Assembly: GCA_025358485.1 (NCBI GenBank)
Contig: JANYJJ010000137.1
Coordinates: 18,065 to 82,064, forward strand
Source of the DNA: Burkholderiales bacterium
Lineage (GTDB): Bacteria; Pseudomonadota; Gammaproteobacteria; Burkholderiales; Burkholderiaceae_C
Direction: 5' to 3'
Length of the DNA stretch: 64,000 bases
A program made the position numbers and the translations under genes. The number at the start of each line of letters is the position of its first letter. The stretch's first letter is position 1. Under the pieces are notes generated by a model. That model was not told where the DNA came from. It saw only the letters and a list, made by a program, of their open reading frames with translations, and made no database searches. Positions 2,561-61,775 of the stretch are shown one piece after another.

Positions 2561-3268
2561 CTATGCCTTGGCCGCTTTCACTGCCAGCCGCTCGCCTCGA
2601 AAGGCCATGGCGGTGTCAAAGGCTGAGCTCACAAAGCCGAGCACGGCGGCAAATTCTTCATCGCTGAGCTGGCGTGCGGCGTCACGCGAGCGGTACACAT
2701 TGGCCAGCTCGCGCTCGCGCCCGGCCTGCACGGCCAAGCGGCCCACGCCCAGGTCTTCCAGCGTTTTCCAAAGCTTGGGGTTGTAAGCGCGGGTGAGTTT
2801 CATGACCACTGGGATCGGGTCTTTGCGGCCCAGGACGGCGGCCAAACGCAAGATCACTTCAAACGGCAGACCGACCTTGCCGCCCTCCACCGCCTCCAAC
2901 AACGATGTGTCTTTGAGGTTGATGGCTTGACCCAATTCGCCGAGCGTCAAACCGGCCGCGTCGCGCAGCTCGCGGAACAGGCCGCCCGCCTTTTCAACCG
3001 CCACTTGCTGCGCCACGGGCAAGCGCGACTTCACCAATTTGAAGGACAGGTCGGCTGCGCTGCTGGCCGCGCTGCTGGCGGCACTGCCCGTCAAACCCAA
3101 GACAAAACCAGTCCACGACCGCAAGTCGCGGGCGAGGGCTTGAATGCCTTTGTCCAAACTCAGTCCTGGCACCAAAGAACCCGACACCTTTGTCGCTACT
3201 TTGGACGGGGTCGCCTTGCGCGCAACGGGCTTGACGCGGGAAGTCAACTTTTTTGAGGCTGTGGGCAT
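2561..3268 (-). CDS. hypothetical protein with helix-turn-helix-like segment
   Basis: ATG at 3268 is preceded by GGAGAG. Segment GLTLGELGQAINLKDTSLLEAVEGG resembles an XRE-type HTH. No closer assignment. Confidence 0.6.
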   Translation of the reverse strand: MPTASKKLTSRVKPVARKATPSKVATKVSGSLVPGLSLDKGIQALARDLRSWTGFVLGLTGSAASSAASSAADLSFKLVKSRLPVAQQVAVEKAGGLFRELRDAAGLTLGELGQAINLKDTSLLEAVEGGKVGLPFEVILRLAAVLGRKDPIPVVMKLTRAYNPKLWKTLEDLGVGRLAVQAGRERELANVYRSRDAARQLSDEEFAAVLGFVSSAFDTAMAFRGERLAVKAAKA

Positions 3269-3349
3269 GAAGGACTCTCCGTGGCGTTGACTGGCTGATG
3301 AACAGACGATGGCCAACCCAGAGTAGGCGGCTTGCTGGGCCGCGTCGAT

Positions 3350-4264
3350 TCAGGTTTTCACTCTGCGCGAGGGGTTCTCAGTTGCAGGAAGCAAGGATTG
3401 GTGCGTGCCGTTCAAATCGAGCACGACGGTGTGTGCGGCTTTGTCGTGCAGGGCTTGGCGGTTGCTGTCCCACAGCAGCTGCAAAAAGCCAAACATGCCG
3501 GTGGACACACCTGCTGCGTAGCCGCCGTAGCGCTTGAACGAAAGCATCAGGGTCATGGGCTTGCCAGTCAATTCGACCACGCGCAGCTTGAACAAACGCT
3601 TGCCCAAGGTCTGGCCTTTCCACCACACCGGCAAGGCCGAGAAATACAGCACCGTCCAGCCCAAGCCCAAACCCAAGTCGTCAGACCAACTGGCCACGGC
3701 GCTTTTGACACTCAGTTTTTTGGGCTGCTTGGCTTTCTCAAGCGCGTCTTCCAATTCCGCGATCTTGGCTGCTAAGGCTTCGGGGCTGGACGCTGCGTTG
3801 GCAGGCGCTGTGTTGGGAGTTGCAACACTTTTGACGCCGTCGCCGTTGATCGAGACTGAAATGCCCTTTGCGTCTTCCAGATCAAACTCGATGCTGCCGC
3901 GCGTGCTGTAGAGCTGCAGCGCGCCCGACACCAACATCACCGCCGCGCCCGTCCAGGCCGTAACCAGGAGCCATGTTTTTTGTTTTGCAAATTCAGCCGG
4001 ACGCTGTCGCACAAGCAGCCAATTGGCCAGCGCCACGCCGCCCAGCAACAAAAAGTTGGCGTGTTGGGACAGCACACCGATCACCGCCAAATCGACCCCG
4101 ATGGCCAGCAAACGCCGCCAAGGACTGGCCAGCGGGGCGCCCAACAAACCAGGCGCGACATTCAAATCGTCGTGCGTGACCCAAGCATGCTTTGCGTTTT
4201 TGGCCGCTTTGAAAGCCTTGGAATCGACAGCTGCTGCGGGCTCGGGTTGTGAAGGCGACTCCAT
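3350..4264 (-). CDS. RDD-family membrane protein
   Basis: WRRLLAIGVDLAVIGVL near the N-terminus and GQTLGKRLFKLRVV near the C-terminus, as in RDD-domain proteins. Only 21 nt downstream of the preceding gene. Confidence 0.7.
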   Translation of the reverse strand: MESPSQPEPAAAVDSKAFKAAKNAKHAWVTHDDLNVAPGLLGAPLASPWRRLLAIGVDLAVIGVLSQHANFLLLGGVALANWLLVRQRPAEFAKQKTWLLVTAWTGAAVMLVSGALQLYSTRGSIEFDLEDAKGISVSINGDGVKSVATPNTAPANAASSPEALAAKIAELEDALEKAKQPKKLSVKSAVASWSDDLGLGLGWTVLYFSALPVWWKGQTLGKRLFKLRVVELTGKPMTLMLSFKRYGGYAAGVSTGMFGFLQLLWDSNRQALHDKAAHTVVLDLNGTHQSLLPATENPSRRVKT

Positions 4265-4285
4265 CCTGTGGCCTGGTTCGCAAGA

Positions 4286-6052
4286 TCAAACGGTTTTGAC
4301 TTTGACCTTGGCGTGCTCGTGGATGCCCATGGCACCGAAGAACAGGGCCACCAAGCGGTGCGCGTCGGTGAAGCTGACGCTGCGGTTTTCGCTGCGCCGC
4401 GCCAGCACCCAATTCAGCAAATCACCGGCGGCGATGAAGTCCACGCGGATCAAGCGCGTGCACGACACGTTGACGAAAGCGGCAGCGCCCAATTGCGTGT
4501 CCATGCGCTTCAGCACCTCGCTGATGTCACCCACCAATTGGCCCGACAGCTCGACCCCCGCCGTTTGGCTGTGGCCGCTTTCATCGATCAAATGTGACTC
4601 GACAAAATGGGCGCTGATTTCACTCGTGACCGAGCCGGTGGGGGCGTTGGTGCTTTGACCGACGGCGCTGACGCGCACTTTGCAGCGCGCGCTTTCCCAA
4701 GACGGTGGCGACACTTCGTAGGTCACGCAGTAGTCGATGGCGGTTTCATCAAACTGGTCGGGCCGGTTGGTCATTCGCAAGGCTTCCATGCGCAGATGCC
4801 AATAAAGCGGATCCACGTCGCGCAGGCCCGTGGGCGACGCGTCAGTCAGCGCGGCAAACAAGCGATCGCCGGCCAGCCAACGCATGTCCAAGGGCTGCGT
4901 CATCCAATTGCGAAACAAAGCACTCAGACCAGCACAGGCTTCAGGATCGACGGCGCGCAGTGCACTCCAGTCAAACACCCACGGCAACGGCATTTGCAAG
5001 GTTTGCGCTCGCAGGCTGGCCACCGCTTCGGCGTCTACGTAAGGCGGACAGACCCAGCCAATTTGCGCATCGATGCGCCCGCTGGTTGCGCGTTCTTCAG
5101 TCGCAGCTTCGGCGACCAACTTCGGCATGGAATACCACTGCGGTGCCGACCAGCCAAACTGCTGCGCGTAGTCCAGCGCCAAACTCTCGAACCGATGGTG
5201 CTGGCCTATGGCGCGGTACAAATCAAACAATACCAGCCAAGTTTCGGCATGTTGGGCGCGACCACCGCCGGCTGCGGTCAAGGTGGTGAGCGAGTGCTCG
5301 CACAGATCGAAGTCGGCGTTGGCAAAAGCGATGACGGCTTCGTCCAAATCAGGGTCGTGTCGAACTTCCGTTTCAACCGCTGCGGGCACCCCGCCGAAGA
5401 CGGGCGGGTGAACGCTGCGCGGCTTGTCGCCGCTCGCTGTCATTGAAACCGCCGAGGACGCCGCCAGCGTGGGAATTCGCGACAGCGGCGACACGCCCGC
5501 GCCCATCACCGCCACATTGGGTGTGCCCAAAGGCGCGCTCAGCGACAGCTCTTCCGAATCCATCACCAAGCCGCCGCGACTGGACGCACCCGCAACCGTA
5601 GATCGGTACGCGCGCTGCTCCAAGCTGGCCGGCTGCGTGCGGGCGTTGAAAAACTCGGCCCCGCGGCGGCCTTCGCTGGGCAAAGTTTCGCCCGCCATTT
5701 GCTGTTCGATCTCGTCGATCTTGGCCTTCACGCCGCTGTCTTGGCGCAAATTGCTGTCGGGCAGGCGACCTTCGGTATCGCCCATCCGCGACGAGGCTCC
5801 ACCCAACGCGGCCAGTTGTTCGGGCGACAAACCTTCGCGCCGCACTTTGCGCAGCACATCGAATTCGCGTTTGCGAACAAAGTCGTTGCGCCGTTTGCGC
5901 TCGATCATGGCCTTGAGCTCGGCCTTGGCGAATTCGGTTTCGCGAACCTCGGGTGCCGACGCACCCAAGTCATGCCATTCGGTGGACGGATTGGCGACGA
6001 ACTTGACGACCTTGCGGAAAAAACTCGTCGCGTCTTTCGGTTCCGTGGTCAT
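4286..6052 (-). CDS. hypothetical protein with charged N-terminus and two tandem helical + STAS-like modules
   Basis: 588-aa ORF with a visible internal duplication (FESLALDYAQQFGWSAPQW / FDETAIDYCVTYEVSPPSW). No family name recognised with confidence. Confidence 0.7.
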   Translation of the reverse strand: MTTEPKDATSFFRKVVKFVANPSTEWHDLGASAPEVRETEFAKAELKAMIERKRRNDFVRKREFDVLRKVRREGLSPEQLAALGGASSRMGDTEGRLPDSNLRQDSGVKAKIDEIEQQMAGETLPSEGRRGAEFFNARTQPASLEQRAYRSTVAGASSRGGLVMDSEELSLSAPLGTPNVAVMGAGVSPLSRIPTLAASSAVSMTASGDKPRSVHPPVFGGVPAAVETEVRHDPDLDEAVIAFANADFDLCEHSLTTLTAAGGGRAQHAETWLVLFDLYRAIGQHHRFESLALDYAQQFGWSAPQWYSMPKLVAEAATEERATSGRIDAQIGWVCPPYVDAEAVASLRAQTLQMPLPWVFDWSALRAVDPEACAGLSALFRNWMTQPLDMRWLAGDRLFAALTDASPTGLRDVDPLYWHLRMEALRMTNRPDQFDETAIDYCVTYEVSPPSWESARCKVRVSAVGQSTNAPTGSVTSEISAHFVESHLIDESGHSQTAGVELSGQLVGDISEVLKRMDTQLGAAAFVNVSCTRLIRVDFIAAGDLLNWVLARRSENRSVSFTDAHRLVALFFGAMGIHEHAKVKVKTV

Positions 6053-18831: not shown

Positions 18832-18842
18832 GCAGTCTGGTC

Positions 18843-19075
<233 letters not shown>

Positions 19076-19096
19076 ATGCAGCGGGTCGCCGCACAA

Positions 19097-19185
19097 CTCC
19101 CTTCCCCTTAGACAGGCGGCGCAAATTCTCAACCCCCTTCCCCTCGACGGGGAAGGGTTGGGGAAGGGGTGAAATCGTCGAACAC
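19097..19185. repeat. truncated copy of the nested-palindromic element also found inside putA and uvrA
   Basis: CCCCTTCCCCTCGACGGGGAAGGGTTGGGGAAGGGGTGAAATCGTCGAACAC matches the left arm plus half the centre of the 55173-55285 copy. A degenerate arm lies at 19097-19116. Confidence 0.75.
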
Positions 19186-25721: not shown

Positions 25722-28700
25722 TCAGTGAAGGCCCGCCAACAGCGCCGCATTGCCACCCGCAGCCGCTGTGTTGATGGTCACTGTTTGCTCGGCGCAAAAG
25801 CGCAACAGGTAGTGCGGCCCGCCTGCTTTGGGGCCGGTGCCGCTCAGGCCTTCGCCGCCAAAGGGTTGCGAGCCGACCACCGCGCCAATCATGTTGCGGT
25901 TGATGTAAACGTTGCCGATGCGCGCCTGCGCTGCCAGGCGCATAGCACGGCTGTCGATGCGGGTTTGGATGCCCAGTGTCAAGCCGTAGCCGAGGGCGTT
26001 GATTTGCTGCATGACAGCATCGACATCGCCGCTCCAACGCACGACGTGCAGAACCGGGCCGAAGATTTCTTGTTGGACTTGACTGATGGAAGCGACTTCA
26101 AAGGCGATGGGGGAGATGAGGTGCGCGGGTTGGCCCCCTCCCCTTGACGGGGAGGGTTGGGGAGAGGTGAAAGCTCCCGACACTGACCGCAAGTGTTCAA
26201 CGCTCTCACCTCCTCCCCAACCCCCCTCCGTCAAGGGGGAGGGAGCCGTGCCGATCAATTTGGCCGTCTGGTGCAAACGAGCAATGTGCTCGCTGATGCC
26301 CTCAAACGCCTCCCCATCAATCACCGGCCCCACGTCTGTTGCGAGCAACGCCGGATCGCCCACGCGAAGCTCACTCAGCGCCCCACGAATCATGTCGATC
26401 ACGCCGTCGGCGATGCCATCGTGCACGCACAACAGACGCAGCGCCGAACAGCGCTGACCGGCCGAGCGGAACGCGCTTTGCACCACGGCGTCCACCACCT
26501 GTTCAGGCAGCGCCGTGCTGTCCACGATCATGGCGTTGATGCCACCTGTCTCGGCAATCAGCGGCACCATGGCGCCGTCGCGCGCAGCCAAACTTCGGTT
26601 GATGATTTTGGCGACCGCTGTCGAGCCGGTGAAGCACACACCCGCCGTGCGCGGGTCAGCCACCAACGCCGCGCCCACCACGTCACCCGCGCCATGCAGC
26701 AGCATCAGCGCGTCGCTCGGCACGCCGCACTCCACCAACAAATCAACAAAACGCTGCGCCACAAATGGCGTTTGCTCAGCCGGTTTGGCGGCCACGCTGT
26801 TGCCCGCCACCAAGGCCGCCACCACTTGGCCTGCAAAGATGGCCAAAGGGAAATTCCACGGGCTGATGCAGATGAACACGCCGCGCCCGTGCAAGTGCAA
26901 CTCGTTGCTTTCGCCAGTGGGGCCGGGCAGCGTTTGGGTGGCCAATTTGACTTCGGCTTGGTCAGCGTAGTAGCGGCAAAAGTCCACCGCCTCGCGCACT
27001 TCTGAAACACAGTCGCCGAGTGTTTTGTGAGCTTCGTTCACCAGCAAACCGCAGAACTCGGGCATGCGTGACTCCAGCGCGTCGGCCGCGCGGCGCAGCA
27101 CGTTGGCGCGGCCTTTCAGCGGCGTGACGCTCCAGCTTTGGAAGCCTTGATGCAAGCGCGCCATGGCCGCCGTCACATCGGACGGCGTGGCCTCAATGAC
27201 TGCCTGAATGCGCGTGGCGGCAACGGCTTCCAGCAATGGCTCGCGCTGCGCGATCACGCTCAAATCAACGCCTTTGGAATTGGCGCGGCCCGTGCTGCCG
27301 TTCCATCCAAACAACTCCATCGGCTGTGCAAACGCGGCCTGCGTGGCGGGTGTCAGCGGTGACGACAACAGCGCCTGCACATTCACGGTGCTGTCGGTGA
27401 GTTGATGCACAAACGAAGAGTTGGCCCCGTTCTCTAACAAGCGCCTGACCAAGTAAGCCAACAGGTCGCGGTGCTCACCCACAGGCGCATACACACGCAC
27501 CGCAATGGCAGGGTTGCGCATCACCTCCCGGTAGATTCCTTCGCCCATGCCGTGAAGGCGCTGCAACTCGAAGTGCGCGCCTTCCGCCGCATTCGCCATG
27601 TGCATGATGGCCGCAATGGTGCCGGCGTTGTGCGTCGCAAATTGCGGGTAAATCACGTCGCTGTGCGCCAACAAATCCTGTGCGCAAGCCAGGTAGGCGA
27701 TGTCGGTGTGGTGCTTGTGGGTGAACACCGGGTAGCCGCTCAAACCCAGCTCTTGGGCGCGTTTGATTTCACCGTCCCAATACGCACCTTTGACCAAACG
27801 CACCATGAAACGCAAGCCGTGTCGCTTGGCAATGCGCGCCACTTCTTGCGTCACGTCCGGCGCACGAAGTTGGTAGGCCTGCACCGCCAAGCCAAAGCCG
27901 CGCCACTGCGGAAAGTGCGCCGCGATGCGCGCGGCCAAAGCGTCCAGCACGTCGAGCGACAGCTCCAAGCGGTCGCTCTCTTCGGCGTCGATGGTCAGGT
28001 TGAGGTTGGCCTTCGCAGCAGGTTCGATGAGCTGCCACACGCGCGGCAATAGTTCGGAAAAAACGCGGTCGCGCTGGCTGTCTTCGTAGCGTGAAAACAA
28101 GGCGCTGAGTTTGATGGAAATGCCGTCGTTCGCGGTGGGATCGCCCGCAAAGTTGCTGCTGGCCGCCACGCTGAAAATCGCGTTCAAGTACGACGCCAAA
28201 TAACGCTGCGCATCGGCCTCGGTGCGCGCGCCTTCGCCCAACATGTCGTAGCTGAAGCGCAAGCCGCGCTGCGACTTGCGGGCCGACGCGGCCTCGCCCA
28301 TTGCCTCTTTGATGTTGCGGCCCAGCACAAACTGTTTGCCCAGCAATTGAATGGCGCGCACGGTCGCGGCCACCACGGTTTGCGCACCCAGCCGCTTGAA
28401 GATGCCTGCTTCACCACTTGCACCCGCGTCGTTGTCAGGCAAGAATTTCTTCGACATGGCAATCGCACTGGCCGACAACGACGCCAGCATCTGGTGCGGC
28501 CCACCCGAGCTGGCATCGAACTGCGCATGGCCCAATTGATCGGCCGTCAGCGCGACAGCGGTTTCCAAATCCGGCACACGCAACAGCGCCTCGGCCAAGC
28601 GCATCAAAGCCAAGCCTTCGGCGCTGGAGATCGGGTACTCGCGCAGCAAACTTTCCATCGCCCAAAACGGCGGAGGGTTGTCGCGCACGGCCTGCACCCA

Positions 28701-28844
28701 AGGCGTGGCAGCTTGCATGGCGAGCGGCCAATTCAGCGCGCCTTGCAGGCCAGCCATCAGCGTTTGCAAAATGCGCAACTCGTCGCTGGGCGCGGCGGTG
28801 TAAGGCGACGGAAGGCGTGCAGCAGCTGGTGGCAGGGTAAACAT
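25722..28844 (-). CDS. putA: bifunctional proline dehydrogenase / L-glutamate-gamma-semialdehyde dehydrogenase (no RHH DNA-binding domain)
   Basis: 1040 aa with a PRODH barrel then an ALDH domain (FTGSTAVAK, EIFGPVLHVVRW, GGEGLSGTGPKAGGPHYL). Carries an in-frame repeat insertion at ~26131-26247. Confidence 0.95.
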   Translation of the reverse strand: MFTLPPAAARLPSPYTAAPSDELRILQTLMAGLQGALNWPLAMQAATPWVQAVRDNPPPFWAMESLLREYPISSAEGLALMRLAEALLRVPDLETAVALTADQLGHAQFDASSGGPHQMLASLSASAIAMSKKFLPDNDAGASGEAGIFKRLGAQTVVAATVRAIQLLGKQFVLGRNIKEAMGEAASARKSQRGLRFSYDMLGEGARTEADAQRYLASYLNAIFSVAASSNFAGDPTANDGISIKLSALFSRYEDSQRDRVFSELLPRVWQLIEPAAKANLNLTIDAEESDRLELSLDVLDALAARIAAHFPQWRGFGLAVQAYQLRAPDVTQEVARIAKRHGLRFMVRLVKGAYWDGEIKRAQELGLSGYPVFTHKHHTDIAYLACAQDLLAHSDVIYPQFATHNAGTIAAIMHMANAAEGAHFELQRLHGMGEGIYREVMRNPAIAVRVYAPVGEHRDLLAYLVRRLLENGANSSFVHQLTDSTVNVQALLSSPLTPATQAAFAQPMELFGWNGSTGRANSKGVDLSVIAQREPLLEAVAATRIQAVIEATPSDVTAAMARLHQGFQSWSVTPLKGRANVLRRAADALESRMPEFCGLLVNEAHKTLGDCVSEVREAVDFCRYYADQAEVKLATQTLPGPTGESNELHLHGRGVFICISPWNFPLAIFAGQVVAALVAGNSVAAKPAEQTPFVAQRFVDLLVECGVPSDALMLLHGAGDVVGAALVADPRTAGVCFTGSTAVAKIINRSLAARDGAMVPLIAETGGINAMIVDSTALPEQVVDAVVQSAFRSAGQRCSALRLLCVHDGIADGVIDMIRGALSELRVGDPALLATDVGPVIDGEAFEGISEHIARLHQTAKLIGTAPSPLTEGGWGGGESVEHLRSVSGAFTSPQPSPSRGGGQPAHLISPIAFEVASISQVQQEIFGPVLHVVRWSGDVDAVMQQINALGYGLTLGIQTRIDSRAMRLAAQARIGNVYINRNMIGAVVGSQPFGGEGLSGTGPKAGGPHYLLRFCAEQTVTINTAAAGGNAALLAGLH
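26131..26247. repeat. nested-palindromic ~110-nt element inserted in frame in putA
   Basis: Left arm CCCCCTCCCCTTGACGGGGAGGGTTGGGGAGAGGTGA. The right arm is its inverted copy TCACCTCCTCCCCAACCCCCCTCCGTCAAGGGGGAGGG. Each arm contains its own small palindrome. Boundaries are +/- a few nt. Confidence 0.85.
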
Positions 28845-54140: not shown

Positions 54141-57100
54141 TTACCTTTTGAGCAACGGCAACAAATAGCGCCCGGTGTAGCTGGCTTCCGTGGCCGCCAC
54201 CGTTTCTGGCGTGCCCACGGCCAACACGGTGCCGCCACCGGCTCCGCCTTCGGGGCCCATGTCGATCAACCAGTCGGCGGTTTTGATGACGTCCAGGTTG
54301 TGCTCAATCACCACGATGGTGTTGCCTGCATCACGCAACTGGTGCAGCACTTTGAGCAGCAAAGCGATGTCGGCAAAGTGCAAACCGGTGGTGGGTTCGT
54401 CCAGGATGTAGAGCGTGCGGCCGGTGTCGCGCTTGCTCAACTCCAAGGCCAATTTCACGCGCTGCGCTTCGCCGCCGCTCAAGGTGGTCGCGCTTTGCCC
54501 CAGGCGGATGTAGCCCAAGCAAACGTCCAACAGCGTTTGCAATTTGCGCGCGATGTTGGGCACGGCGTTGAAGTAGGCGTAAGCGTCTTCCACCGTCATG
54601 CCCAGCACATCGGTGATGTTTTTGCCTTTGTACAAAACCTCCAAGGTTTCGCGGTTGTAGCGGCGGCCGTGGCAGACATCGCACTTCACATACACGTCGG
54701 GTAAAAAGTGCATCTCCACTTTCAGCACGCCGTCGCCCTGACAGGCTTCGCAGCGCCCGCCCGCCACGTTGAAGCTGAAGCGGCCGGGGCCGTAGCCGCG
54801 TTCTTTGGCGGTGTTCATTTCGGCAAACAGTTCGCGTATGGGCGTGAACATGCCGGTGTAGGTGGCCGGGTTGCTGCGCGGTGTGCGGCCTATGGGTGAT
54901 TGATCGACGTTGATGACTTTGTCGAAGGCTTCAATGCCTTCGATGGTGTCGTGCGCCTCGGGCTCGGTGTGGCTGCTGTAGAGCTTGCGCGCCACGGCGG
55001 CATACAGCGTGTCGTTCACCAGCGTGGATTTGCCCGAGCCCGACACGCCGGTCACGCAAGTGAGCAAGCCCACCGGAAACCCGACGCTGACGTTTTGCAG
55101 GTTGTTGCCACGCGCGTTGACAACACGCAGCCAGCCGATGTTGGGGTCGGGGGGGAAGAATCTGGATTTGCTCCCTCCCCCTTGACGGGGGAGGGTGGGG
55201 GTGGAGGTGGAAGCGTCGAACACAGAAGGTTCTACTTCCAACATCTCACCTCCTCCCCAGCCCTCCCCCGTCGAGGGGGAGGGGGCAACACGTTTAGCTG
55301 GCACTTCGATCTTTAGCGCTCCCGACAAATACCTGCCCGTCAACGACTCCACATTCGCCGCCACCTCATCCGGCGTGCCTTGCGCAATCACGCAGCCGCC
55401 GTGCACGCCGGCGCCCAGGCCCATGTCAATGACGTGGTCGGCTTGGCGAATGGCGTCTTCATCGTGCTCGACCACCAACACGCTGTTGCCGATGTCGCGC
55501 AGGTGGCGCAGCGTGCCCAGCAATCGGTCGTTGTCGCGCTGGTGCAGGCCTATGCTGGGCTCGTCCAGCACGTACATCACGCCCGTCAAGCCCGAGCCAA
55601 TTTGCGATGCCAAACGGATGCGCTGCGACTCGCCGCCACTCAGGGTGTCGGCGCTGCGGTCGAGGCTCAAATAGTTCAGCCCCACGTCGTTCAAAAACTT
55701 CAAGCGCGAGCGAATTTCCTTCACCACTTTGTCGGCGATGTCGGCCTTGGATCCCTTCAGCGTCAAGCCCTCGAAGTAGGCCAAACAGTCGCGCAGGGTG
55801 AAGTGCTCGACACGGTAAATCGGCTCGCCTTTGTTGTCCGCTTTGTTGTCTGCTTTATCGTCGTCGGCGCGTTGCAAAAACACATTGCGCGCCTCGCGGC
55901 GCAGGCGCGAGCCTTCGCAGTCGGGGCAAGGTTTGGCGGCTTGGTAGCGCGCCAAGTCTTCGCGCACGGCGGATGAGTCTGTTTCTTTGTAGCGCCGCTG
56001 AAAGCTGGGGATGATTCCTTCAAACGGGTGCATTCGTTTGACGCTGCGCGTTTTGCCTTTGGCGTTTTCGGCTTCGTAGGTGAAGCTGATGTCCTGCGTG
56101 CCAGAGCCAAACAGCAGCACTTGCTTGACGCTGTCGGTCAGGTCTTCAAACGGCGCGTCGATGTCAAACGCATAGTGCTTGGCCACGCTTTCCAACACCG
56201 AGAAGGTGTAAGCATTGCGCCGGTCCCAGCCCTTCACCGCGCCGCTGGCCATGCTCAGGCTGGGGAAGCCGACCACGCGCTGCGGGTCAAACACCGTCAC
56301 GTGGCCCAAGCCGTCGCAGCCGGTGCAAGCCCCCATCGGCGAGTTAAATGAAAACAAGCGCGGCTCCAACTCGCTGAGCGAATAGCTGCACACAGTGCAC
56401 GCAAACTTGCTAGAGAAAGTGTGTTCGGCGGGTTTGTCTTCTGGCTTGCCTGAAGGGCTGTCCATCTCCAACGCAACCGCGCGGCCATCGGCAATGCGCA
56501 TCGACGCCTCGAAGCTCTCGGCCAAGCGCTGCTGCAAGCCAGCGGCGGGGTCGGTGGTGACTTTGATGCGGTCTATCACCACGTCGATATCTTGCTTCTC
56601 GGTCTTCTTCAGCACGGGCAAATCGGCCGCCTCGAAGGTGGTGCCGTTGACGCGAAAACGCACATAGCCCTGGGCCTGCATGTCGGCAAACAATTCAGTG
56701 AATTCGCCTTTGCGATCACGCACCACCGGGGCCAAGATCATCAGGCGCGTGCCCTCGGGCAAAGCCAGCGCGGCGTCCACCATTTGGCTGACGCTTTGGG
56801 CTTGCAGCGGCACGTGGTGCTCGGGGCAAAACGGCGTGCCGGCGCGGGCGTACAACAAGCGCAGGTAATCGTGAATTTCAGTCACGGTGCCCACCGTGGA
56901 GCGCGGGTTGTGCGAGGTGGCTTTTTGCTCAATGCTGATGGCGGGCGACAAGCCTTCGATCACGTCCACATCGGGTTTGTCGAGCAGCTGCAAAAACTGC
57001 CGCGCGTAGGCCGACAAACTTTCCACGTAGCGCCGGTGCCCTTCGGCGTAAAGGGTGTCGAAAGCCAGACTCGACTTGCCCGACCCGCTGAGGCCGGTGA

Positions 57101-57209
57101 TGACCACCAGCTTATTGCGCGGAATGTCGAGGTCGATGTTTTTGAGGTTGTGCGTGCGTGCGCCGCGCACTCGAATCATGGGAGCTGAAGGATCGATTGG
57201 AGCAGGCAT
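54141..57209 (-). CDS. uvrA: excinuclease ABC subunit A
   Basis: [20 protein letters not shown], two ABC modules and zinc modules. 1022 aa, versus 940 in E. coli as I recall. Carries an in-frame repeat insertion at ~55173-55285. The start could also be the ATG at 57179. Confidence 0.97.
55173..55285. repeat. nested-palindromic ~113-nt element inserted in frame in uvrA
   Basis: CCCTCCCCCTTGACGGGGGAGGGTGGGGGTGGAGGTGGA - centre AGCGTCGAACACAGAAGGTTCTACTTCCAACATC - TCACCTCCTCCCCAGCCCTCCCCCGTCGAGGGGGAGGGGG. Confidence 0.85.
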
Positions 57210-61730: not shown

Positions 61731-61775
61731 AAAACTGTACAAATTTAAAGTTGAAGTTTGAATTTGTACAGTTTT
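61731..61775. repeat. perfect 15-bp inverted repeat with 15-nt spacer in an AT-rich spacer
   Basis: AAAACTGTACAAATT-(15 nt)-AATTTGTACAGTTTT. Confidence 0.85.

Follow-up and report, generated by a model that had tools for sequence, protein, structure and literature searches.

How can a protein-coding gene hold a palindrome of more than 100 nt within its reading frame, and where does such DNA come from? The question is raised by the putA gene in a 64,000-nt stretch of a Burkholderiales genome (assembly GCA_025358485.1, contig JANYJJ010000137.1, positions 18,065 to 82,064), which was analysed at its full length and is called the window below. A first-pass annotation of this stretch had described a nested palindromic repeat inserted in frame in the aldehyde dehydrogenase (ALDH) domain of putA, had reported a second copy in uvrA and had compared both with the Rickettsia palindromic elements (RPEs). 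Here, we follow up these two elements. We consider it likely that both are tolerated, non-autonomous doublets of a ~38-nt unit resembling repetitive extragenic palindromes (REPs), similar in organization to the REP doublets called REPINs and to transposable elements of the miniature inverted-repeat type (MITEs); that they are derived from a cassette in which such units enclose a DUF559 gene is about as likely as not. In-frame insertion of REP-type sequences is already known as a kind; what is new is the unit family and its association with DUF559.

Two palindromic doublets are read in frame in putA and uvrA

The sequences at 26131-26247 and, for the second copy, at 55173-55285 agree with the earlier description (Table 1). 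The putA open reading frame (ORF) passes through the element exactly as had been quoted (...GTAPSPLTEGGWGGGESVEHLRSVSGAFTSPQPSPSRGGGQPAHLISPIAFEV...QQEIFGPVLHV), the uvrA frame is open as well, and the two copies are 84% identical. They are the strongest inverted repeats of the whole 64 kb, and the arm motif occurs seven times on the two strands of the window against 0.00 occurrences expected from 100 shuffles. Each doublet consists of two inverted units around a centre of ~35 nt and gives a single long hairpin, and within it each arm has its own hairpin of 8-9 bp, as the annotation had said. The predicted RNA folds reach -99 kcal/mol for the putA element (z = -9.2) and -91.5 kcal/mol for the uvrA element (z = -10.2), and none of 200 shuffles was as stable as either.

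The centre motif AGCGTYGAACAC, common to the putA and uvrA copies and present also in the copy at 19 kb and in the loci L118-L120 and L144, lies in opposite orientations relative to the two host genes, and yet the encoded peptides are alike; sequence and translation thus bear out both halves of this earlier observation. In either orientation, the 5′ arm contains TGA in two of its three frames (within TTGAC and GGTGA), and putA and uvrA both read it in the one frame that is open. The resulting peptides, of the type ...PSPQPSPxRGGG, are rich in Pro, Gly and Ser.

Table 1 Repeat copies and host genes in the window.
Feature	Position	Strand	Remarks
Palindromic doublet in putA	26131..26247	-	in frame as PutA residues ~869-907, SPLTEGGWGGGESVEHLRSVSGAFTSPQPSPSRGGGQPA
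putA element, arm unit 1	26135..26169	+	hairpin CCCTCCCC-TTGAC-GGGGAGGG, tail TTGGGGAGAGGTGA; nhmmer arm profile E = 2.6e-7
putA element, asymmetric centre motif, conserved	26193..26204	-	AGCGTTGAACAC (coding-strand reading)
putA element, arm unit 2, inverted copy of the unit	26206..26244	-	nhmmer E = 2.6e-10
Palindromic doublet in uvrA	55168..55288	-	42-nt arms, 88% complementary; in frame as UvrA residues ~643-680
uvrA element, arm unit 1	55172..55209	+	nhmmer E = 1.5e-8
uvrA element, centre motif	55212..55223	+	AGCGTCGAACAC; orientation relative to the gene reversed compared with the putA copy
uvrA element, arm unit 2	55246..55283	-	nhmmer E = 2.7e-11
putA host gene	25722..28844	-	1040 aa; ALDH catalytic motifs ETGG, GQRCSA and EIFGPV intact
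uvrA host gene	54141..57209	-	1022 aa; both sets of Walker A, signature and Walker B intact
Solo half element	19134..19185	+	one complete unit and centre motif ATCGTCGAACAC, no partner arm; nhmmer E = 1.6e-11

Insertion sites and relatives

Alignment with PutA orthologues established a real indel: orthologues at 75-77% identity are 997-1003 aa long and have a 7-residue loop (LIGEAPVASTFPRLIAPIAF) where the window protein has ~39 extra residues, and orthologues without the DNA repeat are also without the peptide. All twelve closest PutA relatives (83-90% identical) carry element-derived sequence at the site, in the form of the same doublet, of one or two extra tandem 33-nt hairpin units, of a different centre and loops, or of apparent internal-deletion remnants. 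The window UvrA is ~80% identical to UvrA of Rhizobacter, Piscinibacter and Albitalea; here the element family was found only in the two closest relatives (93% identical), and the site is empty in relatives at 85% identity, which are 952-958 aa long.

Mapped by alignment onto the PutA structure of B. japonicum (PDB 3HAZ), the insertion is located between residues 865 and 869 and is followed immediately by the FVxP strand of the ALDH domain, and that of UvrA falls at residue ~625 of the G. stearothermophilus protein (PDB 2R6F), at the junction of the two ATPase modules. In an AlphaFold model of the PutA ALDH region, the insert has predicted local distance difference test (pLDDT) scores of 34-38 and no secondary structure, with a modelled strand on either side. 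As read from these alignments, both sites are structurally permissive, the one in PutA being a loop on the surface of the ALDH domain and the one in UvrA the linker between the ATPase modules, and the insert peptide is probably disordered. The permissive site, the open frame, the symmetry of the element and the Pro/Gly/Ser-rich peptide together make it most likely that the host enzymes are still functional and that the insert is a neutral or mildly costly passenger, and we infer that the insert-bearing PutA and UvrA are made and active.

The same UvrA linker and the same PutA loop are occupied in other Burkholderiales by different G/C-rich palindromic families, read as PHPxPLPQAGEG...PLPLAGEGWGEG at the UvrA site (P0133, P0136, P0143, P0153, P0160, P0192, P0196, P0226, P0227) and as GEGE...LPLPSGEKVGMRG at the PutA site (P0014, P0031, P0056, P0119). 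Because other lineages carry different repeat families exactly there, both sites are, on the sequences compared, places that have been colonised repeatedly and by several repeat families. A second PutA site, located in the proline dehydrogenase half (after GxYRE; alignment block 503-572), holds another in-frame repeat-like insert, ...PSPSANRTTTPPAPPAQAGGL..., which was seen in P0009, P0014, P0028, P0033, P0101 and P0119 and gave no match to the betaproteobacterial repeat element (BRE) in the frames checked by eye. In uvrA, a short tandem codon repeat at 55830-55865 (residues 449-460) lies in another variable loop, where relatives have different acidic or Gly-rich inserts.

A hairpin unit found in many phyla

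With a degenerate search pattern made from five arms of the window, a collection of species-representative genomes was searched, and at least 117 DNA stretches from many phyla were matched. Among the matches listed were Alpha-, Beta-, Gamma- and Deltaproteobacteria, Chloroflexota, Planctomycetota, Nitrospirota, Spirochaetes, Methylomirabilis and others. The family is not lineage-specific, the arm unit being nearly identical across many phyla.

The ~38-nt unit consists of a 9-bp G/C hairpin with a 5-nt loop, CCCTCCCCC-TYGAC-GGGGGAGGG, followed by a 15-nt G-rich tail, TTGGGGNGNGGGTGA. Its 42-column consensus, CnCCCTCCCCCTTGACGGGGGAGGGTTGGGGTGGGGGTGAA, has a mean column identity of 90%, a conservation that is partly imposed by the search pattern itself. 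The hairpin is maintained: in stem positions left free by the pattern, 96.6% of cells are paired, compared with 64-76% when the partners are slid, and 20 compensatory (double-sided) stem changes were counted against 3.2 expected, a number reached in none of 500 shuffles, with most of the changes coming from one variant class and possibly reflecting few events. As a side observation, the 3′ half of the hairpin and the tail together (GGGGGAGGGTTGGGGTGGGGG in the cross-phylum consensus) match the textbook pattern of a G-quadruplex, and among the window copies only the one at 19 kb does so (19146-19166).

Units occur solo, as doublets and in clusters. At about one quarter of the sites a frame is open for at least 60 codons beyond the unit on both sides, some of these frames being antisense artefacts, and several are real genes with Pfam domains flanking the unit on both sides. 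Units or doublets were thus found in frame between DEAD and Helicase_C in HrpA, between UvrA_inter and UvrA_DNA-bind in a planctomycete UvrA, between MFD_D3 and CarD_TRCF_RID in Mfd, between YjeF_N and Carb_kinase in Nnr, within an FtsX-type permease and between the lipoyl domains of a 2-oxoacid dehydrogenase E2.

In a metagenome scan with the lineage-specific pattern GGGGNNGNGGTGNNNNCGTYGAACAC, 58 of 59 matches were due to chance and only L144 was a real element. Rfam gave no match in the window at gathering thresholds, and a permissive Rfam scan of the element returned only sub-threshold eukaryotic microRNA hairpins, which reflect hairpin shape and nothing more. A literature search for the arm sequence and the telltale peptides found nothing relevant.

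Units enclose a DUF559 gene

In a Burkholderiales metagenome-assembled genome (L068), two inverted units bracket an ORF of 113 codons, and similar ORFs stand beside units in L046, L090, L048 and L080. The unit-flanked ORFs of L068, L046, L090, L048, L185 and L186 belong to DUF559 (PF04480; E = 1e-28 to 1e-43), with 97-145 bits against a cut-off of 20.6 and matches covering model positions 2-108 of 109; PDB 3HRL matches the cassette ORF with E = 3e-29. The cassette measures ~440 bp, and its sole gene encodes a ~115-aa DUF559 protein of the endonuclease-like Vsr fold (PD-(D/E)xK). In gene orientation it begins with a unit (hairpin, G tail, GGTGA), which after 3-20 nt is followed by the ATG and the ORF, and it ends with the ORF running into the inverted unit, which adds a unit-type tail to the peptide. 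In several copies the tail variant AGGAGGTGA constitutes a perfect Shine-Dalgarno sequence just upstream of the DUF559 start codon, and in L048 and L186 variant units match each other across the gene.

The association extends to DUF559 homologues that were collected with the core domain alone as query. Of the 120 closest homologue clusters, 52 end in a unit-type peptide by a strict pattern and most do so when judged by eye; about ten begin with the upstream unit read in frame. An exhaustive search yielded 26,520 representative clusters matching the DUF559 core at E ≤ 0.001, and among the best 150 of these the strict tail pattern was passed by 53 of the 126 that extend beyond the core, while the domain is internal in 16. 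Across 264 cores, whose median identity is 60%, conservation of the nuclease-type residues D49, E60, D62 and H66 reaches 99-100%. In Deinococcus proteolyticus, the finished plasmid pDEIPR03 (L189, 120772-121113) carries a DUF559 gene between 56-nt inverted repeats (54 of 56 positions matching) of the same unit type, and the inverted repeat reaches ~20 nt past the unit.

Whole cassettes are also found in frame within host genes. In TrpD, Sua5 and HsdS, Pfam places DUF559 between host domains, and in ThiE, RecO and an M14 peptidase it finds DUF559 and host domains within one ORF; in the TrpD case, the DNA has inverted units at both cassette junctions. Between the host domains Pfam found only DUF559 (with a weak MTES_1575 match) and no intein or intron domain that could serve as a self-splicing vehicle. 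Embedding of the nuclease ORF in a host gene (TrpD, Sua5, ThiE, RecO, HsdS) is thus a property of cassettes in other genomes, whereas the window has gene-less doublets only. No defence-system model of PADLOC matches DUF559, and in the literature on DUF559 we found neither a link to repeats nor a description of the association with the unit.

The trp operon is a recurrent home of the cassette, which occupies the trpG-trpD gap in L046 (3797-4168), L090 (~4950-5400) and L185 (2350-2960) and, in a fourth organism (L187, 1501-2880), lies in frame within trpD itself. HsdS of type I restriction-modification systems often has an in-frame DUF559 domain in its central conserved region (P0416, P0462, P0483, P0489, P0490, P0493, P0499, P0508), flanked there by a different repeat type (HSPLEGES...RWGE / TPPQGGSD), and in Methyloglobulus morosus a DUF559 gene stands between hsdM and hsdS (L184, 2501-2986).

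From cassette to doublet

The step from cassette to doublet is recorded at two orthologous loci, L068 and L108, whose flanks agree to 89.6% over 1.5 kb and to 91.5% over 3.9 kb. The arrangement in L068 is unit-DUF559-unit. What L108 has is a unit, an 18-nt stretch alignable to the final codons of DUF559 and, after it, the far hairpin (100% identical), with neither the gene body nor the adjacent 15-nt tail of the far unit. One deletion of 353 nt accounts for the missing parts; L108 is a cassette cut down to a doublet. In L080, ~50 N-terminal DUF559 codons are left between the units, and the putA doublet of the window is 87% identical, centre included, to a doublet located 30 nt from the L068 cassette.

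For the origin of the doublets in general, the chances seem about even that the unit pair represents the ends of the cassette and that doublets arose from DUF559 cassettes by internal deletion. A cassette inserted in frame in a host gene would then lose its DUF559 gene and leave an in-frame doublet behind; by an alternative route, a doublet may have moved in trans into putA or uvrA. The DUF559 protein may be a nuclease of the nicking or homing type that acts on the units and so mobilises them, and selection would retain only those copies that keep the frame open, have a length divisible by three and lie in linkers. Survival of doublets inside genes would be helped by their having one open frame per orientation, the same peptide type either way and a Pro/Gly/Ser-rich composition of that peptide.

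Several points weigh against this explanation of the putA and uvrA doublets. The 64-kb window contains no DUF559 gene, the similarity between its 35-nt centre and the cassette ends is not significant (p = 0.03-0.6 against shuffles), and none of the PutA or UvrA homologues listed has a full cassette at either site, so that the route from cassette to doublet is demonstrated for L108 and not for putA or uvrA. No target-site duplication could be defined, the flanks showing just a short extension of the palindrome (GC...GC), and a clean empty site is likewise not definable, the nearest uninserted relatives being too diverged. Units stand on only one side of the DUF559 gene in L184 (downstream) and L188, and in the Deinococcus plasmid the tails point outward, the reverse of the proteobacterial cassettes. 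The counts of unit-like tails depend on peptide patterns of our own design, and the AlphaFold model, with a mean pLDDT of 66.8, is only moderate as a whole. DUF559 is a family without demonstrated biochemical activity, and the structure solved for it, 3HRL, is unannotated. Finally, flanking by units would be equally expected if DUF559 genes home into pre-existing doublets.

This last possibility is the main rival on origin: DUF559 would be selfish in the manner of homing genes, or else often carried along as a passenger, and would enter the centre of doublets which spread by other means. We regard it as unlikely. The unit-gene-unit arrangement would also result if the gene entered a doublet, and matching variants on either side of the gene are also expected if the target doublet is lineage-specific; insertion sequences are known to target REPs (Delihas 2011), and a homing endonuclease of a group I intron belongs to the Vsr/DUF559 clade. 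However, L108 keeps 18 nt alignable to the last codons and lacks the gene body and the far tail, for which one 353-nt deletion is simpler than an insertion, L080 has a partly deleted gene between its units, and the Deinococcus inverted repeat, in continuing ~20 nt past the unit, looks like the cassette's own ends. Less likely still is that the doublets are classical REPs or REPINs copied by a single-copy REP-associated tyrosine transposase (RAYT; Y1, IS200-like) encoded elsewhere in the genome, with an incidental link to DUF559. The anatomy would fit, with short G/C stem-loops, head-to-head dimers, a long hairpin and occurrence in several phyla; intragenic GTAG REP dimers in uvrA have been documented (PMC3733652), and orthologous copies that are either frozen or replaced resemble a population near a master sequence. 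On the other side, neither GTAG nor CGTC is present as a terminal tag of the unit, and the gene found repeatedly between inverted units is DUF559. No Y1 motif was present in 199 ORFs flanking units, and no transposase was among the recurrent Pfam families of the 148 that were scanned, ordinary genes being all that this screen found; RAYTs are single-copy genes, the screen covered flanks only, and its choice of ORFs missed the DUF559 genes as well.

Two further explanations concern the inserts as such. That they are kept for a benefit to the host, either as mRNA structures tuning translation or stability or as flexible linkers altering PutA and UvrA, is very improbable. The putA copy is 95-96% identical between the window and L118/L119, where the surrounding coding DNA reaches 85-87%, and repair and helicase genes recur as hosts (UvrA, Mfd, HrpA, RecO), both of which would suit such a benefit. 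Yet the insert is absent from most orthologues, the hosts are functionally unrelated and have a linker or loop as their common factor, and adaptive retention is unlikely because the sites are so variable between lineages, with other families, extra tandem units, internal deletions and replaced centres. The remaining view, that there is no real biology behind the repeat, be it an assembly or chimera artefact or a low-complexity loop produced by local slippage that resembles a repeat, has a negligible probability. The window probably comes from a metagenome-type assembly, an identical protein being encoded on a single 89-kb contig at NCBI, and G/C-rich hairpins are difficult to sequence, but homologous element-derived sequence is present at both sites in independent assemblies from NCBI, JGI and ENA, which excludes the assembly artefact that the annotation had named as a refuting case; in addition, the unit is common at the DNA level to unrelated genes and phyla, its type occurs in a finished isolate plasmid, and the reading frames are intact.

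Comparison with known systems

In-frame insertions of repeats have been documented for RPEs, ERIC, BOX/RUP and BRE. For REPs, Di Nocera, De Gregorio and Rocco (2013; PMC3733652) described GTAG- and CGTC-tagged members in more than 80 species of eight phyla, some of them wholly within ORFs. In their survey, more than half of the intra-ORF REPs are dimers or groups and encode 20-30 aa, many intragenic REPs belong to genes for replication and repair, among them uvrA of Thioalkalivibrio and Opitutus terrae, and linkers and loops were proposed as tolerant sites. The same authors stated that CGTC REPs 'lack a dedicated transposase' and that further untagged families surely exist, and speculated that REP-tagged repair proteins might favour mutator states. 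The annotation's view that insertion of this kind had not been documented was therefore too strong, as it was preceded by these intragenic REPs of several phyla and by BREs in coding sequences (Hot et al. 2011, PMC3110155). The unit studied here resembles tagged REPs in its G/C stem-loops (8-9-bp stems, 4-5-nt loops), its head-to-head dimers, its presence in several phyla and its occurrence in repair genes including uvrA; its 9-bp stem and 5-nt loop fall within the bounds of tagged-REP hairpins (stem of 5-13 bp, loop of a few nt), and some of its dimers lie in ORFs, notably of repair genes. It differs from them in its 15-nt G-rich tail and in standing at both ends of a DUF559 gene, which makes it neither RAYT-linked nor partnerless. 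Membership in the GTAG/CGTC REPs was rejected, the consensus CnCCCTCCCCCTTGACGGGGGAGGGTTGGGGTGGGGGTGAA having no terminal GTAG or CGTC tag and CGTC only inside the loop, on the opposite strand. The sequence strings of the unit are absent from PMC3733652 and its supplements.

RPEs are palindromes of ~100-150 bp that lie in frame in unrelated housekeeping genes at fold-compatible positions (Ogata et al. 2000, 2002, summarised in PMC10969869), and the elements described here share with them the size range, the palindrome and the in-frame location at structurally tolerant sites. The likeness drawn by the annotation holds as far as a selfish-type palindrome in frame in coding sequence with similar peptides either way is concerned; it may not extend to the origin, for which the DUF559 cassette ends point elsewhere. 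RPEs were reported from Rickettsia, whereas the present family spans many phyla, consists of very G/C-rich sequence and has, as a candidate parent, an element that carries a gene; the resemblance is a working one and does not amount to membership. According to Di Nocera et al. (PMC3733652), RPE-4 and RPE-6 are CGTC REPs.

With the REPIN-RAYT system (Bertels and Rainey 2011, PMC3116915) the doublets share the organization of two inverted REPs that form one long hairpin and behave as a unit, and the frozen or replaced state of orthologous copies is REPIN-like in resembling a master-sequence population. REPINs, in contrast, are extragenic and inherited mostly vertically within lineages, whereas the unit is near-identical across phyla and two of the three window copies are inside genes. 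Bacterial MITEs (PMC10969869, PMC3184786) are short, non-coding internal-deletion derivatives that keep the terminal inverted repeats of their parent, form stable hairpins and can fuse in frame with ORFs, features shared by the doublets. Here, terminal inverted repeats surround a short core and give a long hairpin, and a candidate parent with the same ends is available in the unit-DUF559-unit cassette, of which the L068/L108 pair provides a deletion derivative, its gene not being a known transposase. The differences are that this parent carries nothing but the ~115-aa DUF559 gene, that no target-site duplication could be called against the diverged empty sites and that each terminal repeat is itself a hairpin.

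BRE is a ~90-bp repeat of Bordetella and Comamonadaceae that is sometimes tandem and in some copies wholly coding (Hot et al. 2011, PMC3110155). Membership in it was rejected as well, the sequences in the supplementary List S1 being unrelated (TTTTTTTTTGGCCGCGGGCCGCCCAAGGCAAAAAAGCCCCCTCGGGGGGCAGC...) and the unit strings absent from it. The cassette also recalls the Vsr-fold homing endonucleases (I-Bth0305I, 'fractured genes'; PMC3239194, PMC2677866), in which a small Vsr-like nuclease gene is likewise embedded selfishly in host genes; these nucleases, however, ride group I introns or split-intein halves, which are removed, while the DUF559 cassette is bounded by hairpin repeats instead. DUF559, Vsr and I-Bth0305I (3R3P) were placed in one PD-(D/E)xK clade in a survey (PMC3424549), and a comparison of DUF559 with 3R3P gave no sequence match.

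Taken as the source of the unit pair, the DUF559 cassette points to another origin and to another possible mobilising enzyme than in RPEs or RAYT-driven REPs. More tentatively, and somewhat short of an even chance, unit-DUF559-unit cassettes could constitute a previously unrecognised class of very small selfish elements across bacterial phyla, which would be open from end to end, sit in linkers free of intein or intron, and decay by internal deletion to REP-like doublets or solo units that seed disordered Pro/Gly-rich linkers such as those of PutA and UvrA.

Pace of change of orthologous copies

Compared with L118 and L119, the putA element of the window is 95-96% identical, while its flanks are 85-87% identical and third codon positions only ~70%. 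Against L120 the relation is the reverse, with 68% identity in the element and ~86% in the flanks, and so it is for the uvrA element against L122 (75% versus 91-93%). These comparisons suggest that the element changes either far more slowly or far faster than its host gene, as might result from constraint or homogenisation at the nucleotide level that is punctuated by replacement. This mixed frozen and replaced state is not accounted for by a derivation from DUF559 cassettes, which we otherwise consider the best explanation.

The 33-nt hairpin sub-unit GCTCCCTCCCCCTCGACGGGGGAGCGGAATCTT is tandemly duplicated in two of these loci, with one extra copy in L118 (5840-5990) and two in L119 (2600-2790); a similar lone hairpin lies between doublet and cassette in L068 (1546-1576), and the uvrA copy of L122 (11870-11990) has an extra arm. 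L119 additionally carries an Eco57I-like methyltransferase and a XamI-type restriction enzyme between putA and proC (3216-5679), which are absent there in L118 and L120.

Implications

By way of palindromic repeats inserted in frame, selfish DNA can add disordered segments to essential enzymes, and putA and uvrA offer a case of two permissive sites that were colonised repeatedly, by several repeat families and in many lineages. Most short palindromic repeats of bacteria are of unexplained origin, and one very widespread family is now tied to a specific small gene. If the proposed relation is true, untagged REP-like repeats gain a source and a candidate enzyme, and DUF559, a very large family with a solved structure and no assigned role, gains a function. 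Should whole cassettes be translated within TrpD, Sua5 and other hosts, a nuclease domain would be carried in host proteins without splicing. For genome annotation, it matters that the units generate spurious heads, tails and gene fusions in predicted proteins.

The half copy and other features of the window

Of the three element copies in the 64 kb, two are within genes, and the third, the solo half element at 19 kb, lies in non-coding DNA beside a truncated pseudogene, with no convincing ORF across it. Just upstream, at ~19098-19125, there is a degenerate hairpin remnant, CTCCCTTCCCCTTAGACAGGCGG. The pseudogene (18834-19076, plus strand) is a fragment of a Gfo/Idh/MocA-type oxidoreductase gene with an internal stop and a premature end ~60 nt before the solo unit, and a deletion or rearrangement may have had its end point at the solo element. 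A promoter and terminator scan around this half copy returned nothing above chance, and the window has no tRNA genes. Farther downstream, two A/T-rich arms of 22 nt, which are 91% complementary and 1 nt apart (AAAACTGTACAAATTTAAAGTT / AAGTTTGAATTTGTACAGTTTT), form a near-perfect palindrome at 61731-61775 that is atypical of the window with its 61% G+C and could be an operator or a terminator.

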